Origin: a virus | Taxonomy: Duplodnaviria > Heunggongvirae > Uroviricota > Caudoviricetes | Length of the DNA stretch: 49,610 nucleotides | IMG/VR virus record: IMGVR_UViG_2534681673_000009 | Reading direction: 5' to 3' (one strand) | Shown: positions 21,001 through 24,000 of the stretch, one piece after another | Position numbering within the stretch: the first letter of the stretch is position 1 | How the letters are laid out: each line of letters starts with the position of its first letter | Position numbers: made by a program

Positions 21001-24000
21001 GGCATCCGGCGAAGACCTGGCATCACAGGGCTGGCGCTATTATCACAAACCGGCGGGCGGAGACAGTGTTAACAAAAACATTGCTGAAGCGGTGGTCAGT
21101 GATGCGGGGGCTACGGGAGGTAAGGCCCTGCAACTGAACAAACCGGAAAACCACATCTGGTTTCTGGAGCATGATGCAGCCGGACAGGGTGCGGAGTTAC
21201 TGAAGAAGGGCGGACGTGTGAGCGTACGGTTTAAGTTGCCGGGTTCACTGGTGCCGAATCAGTTTGCCCTGGGCATTTACTGGCAGTTGTCGTCCCTGCC
21301 GGAGGGGGTGACGCTGTCAGGAGAAGGTAACGATATGCTGATGTCTTTCTTCCTGCAGACGGATACGACGAACCTGAACGCGATGCATCACAGGAAGCCG
21401 AATGCGAAGCTGGATACATTCGGGGTCTTTGATAACGGATGGCACACGCTGGCTTTTGAGTTTGCCGGAAACAACAGCATTCAGGTGACACCAGTACTGG
21501 ATGAGAAACGGGGAGCGGCGTTCACACTGGTGAAGTCACCGGCATCGGGGGCGGCGGACAAACTGCAACTGACCGATATATCAAAATCGGCGACGTATAC
21601 GCTGCTGATTGACAGCATTGCGCTGGAAGTGAACAGCACAGACACTGCGGCATGATAAAAAAAGCCGCCAGTTACCGGAATGGACTGGCGGTGGTAATAC
21701 CCATGGAGAAATATAAAGGAACGATACTTTCGTGCTCTGTTTTTTTAAATGAAAACAGTTCTTATTGTCAACAATAACGGTAAGAAATTATGACTTTTAT
21801 TCATCAGGTGATGCTGTACTTCTGTACGGCAGTCTGTGTGCTGTATCTCCTTTCGGGTGGATACCGGGCCATGCGTGACTTCTGGCGCAGACAGATTGAC
21901 AAAAGGGCCGCTGAGAAAATCAGCGCCAGTCAGTCAGCCGGAAACAAACCCGAAGAGCCGCTCATTTAGCGGCAACTTTCTTAACAACACCTTTCGACGA
22001 GAAAATCCCATGTCAGAAATTACATCCCTGGTCACTGCTGAAGCAGTGAAGGACGTCCTGCGCTCTGAAGAAGTCCGGAGCGCACTGAAACAGAAACTTC
22101 GCCATAACCTGGAAGCGCGTCTTGATACAGAAGTGGATGCCATTCTGGATGAACTGCTGGGCGCACCGGCAGCTCCGGAGCCGGAAGGCATCGCGGGTGA
22201 GGGGAGTGCTTCAGATAGCGGTGCCCCCACACCTGACAGCGACATGATGATGTAAGCATGCGTCAGGGACCATCGGTGTGTGCCGGTGGTCTTTTTTATT
22301 GTTGTGAGCTTCCGGATTGCGGGAGGCGGGGTATGTACCAGATGGAAAAAATCACAACAGGTGTGTCATACACCACGTCAGCGGTGGGAACCGGGCTACT
22401 GGTTCCTGCAGTTGCTGGACAGGGTTTCCCCGTCTCAGTGGGCGGCAATAGGCGTGCTGGGGAGTCTGCTGTTTGGGCTGCTGACATATCTGACGAACCT
22501 GTATTTCAAGATTAAAGAAGACCGTCGTAAGGCGGCACGGGGAGAGTAGGTGATGAACCATGAGAAATGAATCAGCGCTTCAGTCGTCTGGAAAATGAAA
22601 TTGCTGAACTGAATAAAAAACTGTCGGCGCTGATGCCTTCTGAAGATGCAAACAAACGCCGCGATGAGCAGTTTGCGGCGTTTTACGATGATTGCATCAA
22701 AATTGCTCGCAGGATCTTTGCGAATATTTTGCAGGAAAAGTTTTTACCGACCGCATTGTCAGAAAAGTACTCCATTACGGTTAAAAGTGCCGGAGAGGAA
22801 GGCAATAAACGTTATTTTATTGCGTCTGCACCGGATAAAGACCAGGAATGGGGGGGTAATCGGCCATCTTTTATTGTGACAAGCGATGACTGGAATATCA
22901 CGATCAGTGAAGATGGAAAAGTAACACCAGCATCGCACCAGCACAGTGAGGCGCTCATTGAATTTGCCATTGATTACATGAAGAACAATAAAAAGCAGGG
23001 GCTGATGCAGCGCATTGGTCGCTGCATGGGATATCTGCAGCTGGCGGCAGAGATTGAAGCACTTGCCTGTGGTGCTGACAAGGATGTAGTTGTGCGGGAG
23101 GCTCTTCTTCGTGAGTTTGACAACCCGCCCTTTAAAAAAGTGCCGGCTTACTGGTTTCATCCCGGACTGACTTATCTGAAAGGGCGGTTTGGGGAGAGGT
23201 TATCTGAACTTAAGCGATAGTTTATTGAAGAGCCGTTTTTTTTGCAGACAGGCAAAGTTTTTATCCCATGAACAACCCGGGTGACTGAGTTCGTCATTAA
23301 ACCATTTGTTAATGTTGTGCTTCAGATGCTGAAGCATCAATGGTGTTAATGTGGTGATAATGATATCCAGAGTTTCTGTTGAAAGCATGCCGTAAGGCTC
23401 TGAGAGAATGGCCTGAGTGGCCTCGCTGTTATCCGGGATAAGCGCTTTTAATTCTGATTTAACATTTTCGTTCATTATCTGCAAAAACTCTTTGCGTAAA
23501 TTGTTGTCATTATTATTCATTTATAAAATCTCATTTGTTGTTACCGGGTGTGTCCTGGTGCCTGTTGATTATATTCATCGTGAGTACCGGATTATATATC
23601 TGACATATCCAGGAATAAGAGAGCTATAAATCCTGATAAATATCCATGAACGCAAAAATCAAATACGGCCTGTCAGCTGCCGTTCTGGCGCTGATTGCCG
23701 CAGGGGCTTCTGCGCCTGAAATCCTCGACCAGTTTCTGGATGAAAAGGAAGGCAACCACACCACGGCATACCGTGATGGTGCGGGTATCTGGACCATCTG
23801 CCGAGGTGCCATCATGGTGGATGGTAAGCCTGTGATTCCTGGCATGAAGCTGTCGAAGGAAAAATGCGACCGGGTTAACGCCATTGAGCGTGATAAGGCG
23901 CTGGCATGGGTGGAGAAAAACATCAAAGTGCCACTGACTGAACCCCAGAAAGCGGGGATCGCGTCATTCTGCCCGTATAACATCGGCCCCGGTAAGTGTT

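Follow-up and report, generated by a model that had tools for sequence, protein, structure and literature searches.

The stretch of DNA analysed here, called the window, is the virus record IMGVR_UViG_2534681673_000009 (49,610 nucleotides), a Shiga toxin (Stx) 1a-converting lambdoid prophage. Between its class II holin gene S and its lysozyme gene R, two convergent open reading frames (ORFs) are found, one on the plus strand and one on the minus strand. With moderate confidence, these are best explained as two independent accessory genes in a third-gene slot of the lysis cassette, the plus-strand gene being a late gene and the minus-strand gene a separately transcribed moron. The coordinates of both ORFs (217 and 106 amino acids, aa) and the 21-nt overlap of their 3' ends were confirmed as given in an initial annotation of the window (Table 1), and the distance of about 1.1 kb stated there between S and R amounts to 1096 bp, from the S stop codon, which ends at 22549, to the R start codon at 23646; it is filled by the two ORFs. 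The same annotation had seen neither a lysis protein nor any recognisable family in them. The former part stands, as no lysis match was obtained for either ORF, yet the plus-strand ORF falls in phrog_1085 and the minus-strand ORF in phrog_1853. The plus-strand product is a long-YdfR protein minus its DUF1327 domain and hence not an orphan.

Occurrence and linkage of the two genes

The insert shares the Q-controlled late operon with the stx1a genes, and its description as late-operon cargo held good. The GC content is 0.38 in the minus-strand gene and 0.47 in the plus-strand gene (insert 37-47%), versus 0.52-0.57 in S, R, and nanS-p (0.54-0.56 in R and nanS-p), and both genes are present in some and absent from other, otherwise similar Stx phages, indicating accessory cargo. 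Presence or absence in otherwise collinear phages and a deviant GC content are two marks of a moron, and the insert shows both. In such cassettes, the presence of a third gene between holin and lysozyme is standard, not an unusual insertion, since the Qin prophage of Escherichia coli K-12 has the order essQ-ydfR-rrrQ, with ydfR in the holin-lysozyme slot, overlapping the rrrQ start. In many Stx phages, S is directly followed by R, and an S-insert-R arrangement like that of the window occurs in 27 of the 5426 complete E. coli genomes. Diverged versions of the pair occupy the slot in phage 86 and Stx2_12E129, whereas the intact Stx2a phage Stx2_95 carries a 329-aa plus-strand gene alone, 36 bp from R. 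In Stx2_14040 (L005) and Stx1_14040 (L007), the plus-strand gene is truncated after the coiled coil and stands with a different minus-strand ORF. In PhiR12_1 (L006, 1480-2197), a 169-aa DUF1327 gene is convergent with an 86-aa minus-strand gene (phrog_2572), with a 3' overlap of 53 nt; the 86-aa gene is annotated as 'DUF1823' from a sub-threshold match. On its right, the slot is bounded by some 50 bp just before R, which every cargo variant shares, and on its left by the S stop codon. The S-R gap is best seen as a recombination-prone third-gene slot of P21/Qin-type lysis cassettes. The minus-strand ORF of L005 and L007 (2020-2721), which is unannotated and encodes up to 233 aa, shares approximately 250 nt with the 3' part of an annotated plus-strand 'hypothetical protein', that part probably being antisense read-through; the ORF had no match in Pfam, PADLOC, or PHROG.

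The distribution of the two genes points to independence. The loci bearing the minus-strand gene were classified with home-built hidden Markov models (80 IMG/VR loci, the window, L001-L003, and L011-L012). About 50 of them have the order S, minus-strand gene, R without a plus-strand gene, O157:H7 being among these forms, and about 33 have both genes. The plus-strand gene without its partner occurs in Stx2_95, L008-L010, L013, and L014. Remnants of the plus-strand gene persist in the spacer between S and the minus-strand gene, namely 54 nt from the 5' end together with 91 nt from the C-terminal domain in L022, and 42 nt from the 5' end in L027, with none in L023; as these remnants differ, the plus-strand gene must have been deleted independently at least twice, the minus-strand gene being retained. 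Furthermore, the divergence of the two proteins is weakly correlated (r = 0.42). In 33 of the 136 pairs compared, the plus-strand proteins are at least 85% identical while the minus-strand proteins are below 60%, and the extreme combinations are 93% (plus) with 45% (minus) and 99% (minus) with 74% (plus). Such discordant divergence argues against a specifically co-evolving pair.

The convergent arrangement is nevertheless old. A prophage of Salmonella Dublin (L011) contains a 266-aa long-YdfR gene, a gap of 5 nt, and a convergent 105-aa homologue of the minus-strand gene, located between Q/hicBA and the holin gene and not between S and R. The 266-aa protein matches phrog_1085 end to end, and the 105-aa protein is related to that of the window at E = 2e-36 (hhalign probability 99.9%; phrog_1853, 1.4e-32). 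The hicBA genes of this locus (2627-3281, minus strand) lie between Q and the pair, indicating that the zone from Q to the holin gene is a moron-rich region. Taken together, the two genes appear to have been linked ancestrally, the convergent pair being found in Salmonella too, and now to assort, decay, and persist independently. An alternative, held to be unlikely, is that they form one two-component module other than a classical toxin-antitoxin (TA) system, for example with a small lysogen-expressed protein that might restrain or sense and a late long-YdfR effector whose target would be RNA metabolism, the timing of lysis, or a competing phage. This would fit a convergent pair with a junction of 5-11 nt that has been kept from E. 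coli to Salmonella at 35% (plus) and 47% (minus) identity, although at another late-region position, as well as the fact that all window-like and most phage-86-like minus-strand genes adjoin a plus-strand gene. [quoted passage not shown] However, the window protein lacks this RNase E-binding DUF1327 domain, and the solitary copies of either gene, including those in O157:H7 and in an intact Stx2a phage, the repeated losses of the plus-strand gene beside a retained minus-strand gene, and the mix-and-match divergence all speak for separate genes. Because of the Salmonella pair, a real two-component function keeps a small probability. A bolder version, which is quite doubtful, takes the pair as an ancient two-gene system of enterobacterial lambdoid phages, of which the solo copies would be degenerate or repurposed remnants; the helical protein would gate or antagonise the late effector, and the terminator-less junction would enforce exclusive lysogenic or lytic expression.

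The 3' overlap had been interpreted as a sign of mutual antisense control, as in a TA or exclusion module, but comparison of the paired loci does not support this. The genes are convergent at all 33 of them, with stop codons at most 11 nt apart or overlapping; the stops are 5-11 nt apart at 24 loci, and overlaps (8, 21, or 49 nt) are restricted to the window-like subtype. The typical C-terminus of the plus-strand family is ...GLTYLKGRI; in the window lineage, the stop codon is replaced and 10 extra codons (GRFGERLSELKR) run into the 3' end of the minus-strand gene. Hence, the overlap arises because the usual stop after ...GRI was lost, and it is a by-product of this loss rather than a regulatory feature under conservation. 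Space for a terminator between the genes is lacking at every paired locus, so that the transcripts must overlap if both genes are transcribed. This, together with the convergent orientation and the 21-nt overlap in the window, is what a TA or exclusion-type pair under mutual antisense control has in its favour; given the remaining data, such a pair is highly improbable. The overlap is not conserved, both genes are commonly solitary, and their divergence is discordant, on which comparative grounds a TA pair was rejected. Type II TA systems such as the Salmonella hicBA genes likewise consist of two small, adjacent prophage genes in a late-region moron zone, but they are co-directional operons, whereas the window genes are convergent, each occurs alone, and neither toxin or antitoxin homology nor co-variation is found. 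Scans of both proteins against Pfam, NCBIfam, and PADLOC gave nothing above noise and matched no toxin or antitoxin model, and PADLOC-DB v2 (2023, later systems being outside its coverage) contained no defence model that matched the two proteins or the alternative cargo of the slot. A paper on a Gifsy defence protein concerned an unrelated gene of the immunity region and was set aside as not relevant to the slot.

The two proteins and their families

Both ORFs are real genes, as the ratios of nonsynonymous to synonymous substitution (dN/dS) are about 0.2-0.4 and the frames are kept in Salmonella at 35-47% identity. For the C-terminal domain of the plus-strand gene, the pairwise medians of dN/dS are 0.18-0.23 in all divergence bins (21 distinct sequences), and for the minus-strand gene they are 0.25-0.42, again in all bins (29 distinct sequences). 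The initial annotation had allowed for either ORF being a chance frame that is not expressed. The poor structural model of the plus-strand protein and the lack of an assigned function in both families would agree with this, but it is hardly credible beside the purifying selection, the frame conservation across genera, the confident fold of the minus-strand protein, and the annotation of both ORFs as coding sequences by RefSeq in the closest relative (99.8% identical); the selection and conservation data refute it.

The plus-strand protein aligns with positions 122-296 of the 296 in the phrog_1085 profile (3e-96). A search of 5.8 billion proteins returned 176 homologues, of which those with a named source are all from Escherichia or Shigella. 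Two forms occur, namely proteins of 185-222 aa that stand alone and longer ones of 268-333 aa in which the same region follows an N-terminal DUF1327/YdfR domain (PF07041, matched at 1e-34 to 1e-45 by the long relatives). The window ORF is 57-87% identical to the C-terminal 150-210 residues of the PF07041-bearing proteins, and its 217 aa contain neither DUF1327 nor any other Pfam family at E<=1. The long YdfR proteins, which belong to the same PHROG, thus combine DUF1327, a coiled coil, and the C-terminal domain seen in the window protein; the latter lacks the region of YdfR residues 1-72, and K-12 YdfR lacks the coiled coil and the C-terminal domain, although the two genes share the slot between class II holin and lysozyme. 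When 1.84 billion representatives were searched exhaustively with a profile, only 41 proteins were obtained, all members of the plus-strand family or fragments, and a profile search of genome contigs gave 3 Escherichia/Shigella loci (confirmed against the first alignment sequence only). In the distant homologues, from Salmonella and other assemblies, a DUF1327-aligned N-terminal domain, a coiled coil, a short beta segment, and a conserved helical C-terminal domain follow each other, and the invariant columns of the last domain are kept at 26-39% identity across E. coli, Salmonella, and the other assemblies. Residues 1-52/57 alone match plus-strand ORFs of Stx2_14040, Stx1 phages, and PhiR12 phages, whose C-termini differ, so that the N-terminal module is a shuffled one, joined to other C-termini elsewhere. 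The AlphaFold2 model of the 217-aa protein (44-sequence alignment) was unusable, with a predicted local distance difference test (pLDDT) value of 42; helices 2-22 and 27-59 occur in this low-confidence model. The protein has an isoelectric point of 7.7, a grand average of hydropathy (GRAVY) of -0.56, and a Kyte-Doolittle 19-residue maximum of 0.92.

The minus-strand protein (12 kDa) matches phrog_1853, a family without annotation that also includes the Salmonella homologue, at 2.2e-44, covering positions 56-158 of the 159 in the profile; from this partial coverage, some members must be extended at the N-terminus or have mis-called starts. About 40 clusters make up the family, the named ones all from E. 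coli, plus the one Salmonella homologue (47% identity). AlphaFold2 predicted a five-helix bundle with confidence (pLDDT 91.9; predicted template modelling score 0.84), for which Foldseek returned no informative structural relative in the PDB (best E = 2.2) or the BFVD (best E = 0.7). The remote-homology and structure analyses proposed earlier thus yielded a family for each protein, no usable fold for the plus-strand protein, and a confident fold without an informative structural relative for the minus-strand protein. The GRAVY of the latter is -0.50 and its Kyte-Doolittle 19-residue maximum 1.23. In O157:H7 MB41-1 (L095, 3500-3772), a solo minus-strand gene (WP_000138558.1, annotated as 90 aa) lies between holin and lysozyme; the prophage also encodes a PerC-family regulator, and IS66 elements flank it.

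A role of the plus-strand gene as a lysis accessory or regulator, for example tuning the timing of the pinholin or of a signal-arrest-release (SAR) endolysin, would explain its place beside the holin gene. The long-YdfR genes always adjoin lysis genes, immediately behind S in E. coli and Stx phages and just upstream of the holin gene in Salmonella and two other assemblies; the start codon abuts the S stop in relatives; K-12 ydfR overlaps the rrrQ start; and the YdfR paper cites a screen that ties ydfR to envelope integrity (PMC13232886). This role is nonetheless judged decidedly unlikely, as the protein, in contrast to known antiholins and spanins, contains neither a transmembrane (TM) segment nor a signal sequence, and as the gene is absent from many functional Stx phages with S directly before R and is often a pseudogene or truncated. 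Lysis-protein features (TM segment, signal, SAR, muralytic domain) are absent from the minus-strand protein too. Scanning both alignments member by member against Pfam at permissive settings gave weak matches of the coiled-coil type only and no lysis family, and sequence profile searches of the PDB gave nothing below E = 0.1. Within the insert, no RNA family was found by Rfam and no tRNA by ARAGORN. A literature search on the accessions, S-R cargo, lysis-cassette defence hotspots, and PhiR phages found nothing specific.

Expression and state of the prophage

Control by Q had been proposed for the cargo as a whole. This may hold for the plus-strand gene, which lies in the late operon, but it cannot apply to the minus-strand gene, whose orientation is opposite to that of the late transcript. 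In all close relatives, the plus-strand gene encodes 222 aa and begins 15 nt earlier than the window ORF, at a GTGATG (window 22550-22555) that abuts the holin TAG; since this start directly follows S, the gene is placed in the Q-dependent late transcript. Accordingly placed beside Stx1, S, and R, it would be expressed from the Q-antiterminated transcript to yield a soluble, cytoplasmic late accessory protein that is dispensable for lysis. The minus-strand gene, being the sole gene on its strand in that stretch of the late operon, would need a promoter in the 125-bp AT-rich spacer upstream of R, and by analogy with other late-region morons in reverse orientation it would most likely be expressed in the lysogen; once the prophage is induced, it would probably be silenced by the convergent, Q-modified late transcription. 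Its compact, cytoplasmic five-helix product might act by binding a host or phage protein, which is a guess. The comparisons show that both genes are real, which families they belong to, that the slot varies, that the genes are independent of each other, and that the overlap is not conserved, whereas when each gene is expressed, from which promoter, and with what biochemical activity is inferred.

Several observations weigh against this explanation. Firstly, a scan of 21600-24500 for consensus sigma-70 promoters found no full site, for the minus-strand gene or elsewhere in this range. Manual inspection of its strand revealed two perfect TATAAT hexamers (23596->23591 and 23573->23568), neither with a good -35 element, and in an alignment of 37 distinct spacers the first was conserved in three of the five subtypes only, being kept in the window-like, L025, and L027-like subtypes and not in the phage-86-like and Salmonella ones. 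Secondly, the tight junction (<=11 nt) kept from E. coli to Salmonella could mean functional coupling and not linkage alone. Thirdly, the binding role finds no hold in structure, the plus-strand model being unusable and the minus-strand protein being without an informative structural neighbour in the PDB or BFVD. Lastly, this copy of the cassette may be that of a decaying prophage or may contain assembly indel errors, as both the holin frame and the coupled start of the plus-strand gene are disrupted. An extra C at 22391/22392, absent from all sequences compared (alignment with three relatives), frameshifts S after codon 20, leaving the N-terminus in one frame and the second TM domain and C-terminus in another; if real, this indel leaves the prophage without a functional pinholin, but it could also be an assembly error. 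The second frameshifting indel within 170 bp is an A missing after 22563 (window 22560-22566; ATGAAGAAATG in relatives, ATGAGAAATG in the window), which brings a TGA in frame and abolishes the GTGATG start, so that the window ORF uses the internal ATG at 22567.

Another element was seen in the phage-86-like and Salmonella subtypes, namely a conserved GC-rich hairpin with a T-run behind it (CGCCAGTG...CACTGGCG TTTTAT), which precedes the start codon of the minus-strand gene by about 45 nt (in the sense of that strand, about 4440-4480 in L003 and about 4660-4700 in L011, and also in the L074-L094 subtypes). The stem contains a G-T wobble in Salmonella, and the window subtype has no such hairpin. 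The element could act as a terminator or insulator, or as part of a 5' leader.

Neighbouring genes, parallels, and significance

The features of the late region are listed in Table 1. The class II assignment of S agrees with the annotation in the relative NZ_AP042510, and the R genes of Stx phages are predicted SAR endolysins (PMC8136144). An antirepressor gene between R and Rz forms a second cargo gene within the lysis cassette. In the closest relative, a KilA-N gene comes after Rz.

Table 1. Features of the slot between S and R and of the surrounding late region (positions in the window)
Feature	Position	Strand	Remarks
stxA1a	17952-18908		Intact; NF041694, 729 bits, above cut-off
stxB1a	18918-19187		Intact; NF041697, 209 bits
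STnc100 (Rfam RF02076)	19266-19479	+	Full-length match, 194 bits, E = 8e-45; between stxB and the nanS-p esterase gene
nanS-p-type esterase	19691-21655		Followed by two small DUF genes before the holin gene
P21-type class II (pin)holin S	22333..22549	+	PF04971, 4.9e-25 on the downstream frame; left edge of slot
Plus-strand ORF	22567..23220	+	217 aa, ATG; phrog_1085; soluble
N-terminal helical module, residues 1-60	22567..22746	+	Probably coiled-coil
Conserved C-terminal domain, residues 98-208	22858..23190	+	Motif GRCMGYLQ.AAEIEA...FDNPPFK..P..W..PG..YLK
3' overlap of the ORFs	23200..23220		21 nt; lineage-specific
Minus-strand ORF	23200..23520	-	106 aa, ATG; phrog_1853; soluble, 12 kDa
AT-rich spacer, minus-strand gene start to R start	23521..23645	-	125 bp, GC 37-39%; presumed promoter site of the minus-strand gene
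Lysozyme R	23646..24179	+	PF00959, 4.4e-24; annotated as lysozyme in relatives; right edge of slot
P22_AR_N antirepressor	24454-25026	+	PF10547, 7e-46; between R and Rz

The nearest known parallel to the minus-strand gene is bor of phage lambda, a reverse-oriented late-region moron, the product of which is an outer-membrane lipoprotein with a signal peptide. Both genes are small, run against the late operon next to the lysis genes, have a lower GC content than their neighbours, and are present or absent among related phages; transcription from an own promoter in the lysogen is presumed. The 106-aa protein differs from Bor in being soluble and all-helical, without a signal or TM segment, and shares no sequence or structural similarity with it. 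In phage 86, a bor-like gene is annotated on the minus strand after Rz.

Concerning significance, this analysis results in a corrected annotation, the plus-strand ORF being the C-terminal module of the YdfR family, and in the removal of an unsupported TA/antisense interpretation. Nothing indicates a new principle; the two genes are new members of the late-region morons and of the YdfR-family slot. If the ancient two-gene system were real, it would be a new module of prophage state-switching, defence, or counter-defence in the Q-controlled operon of Shiga toxin, and might act on RNase E/RNA turnover, lysis timing, or competing phages. The binding of RNase E by YdfR is the only experimental lead for the long-YdfR family. 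Both families occur in about 12-14% of the complete E. coli genomes, including O157:H7 (by blastn, DNA of the plus-strand C-terminal domain in 786 and the minus-strand gene in 674 of the 5426), and neither has been studied. As the late operon also drives the production and release of Stx1 in Shiga toxin-producing E. coli, genes in this slot that alter lysis or lysogen fitness could influence toxin release or prophage maintenance.

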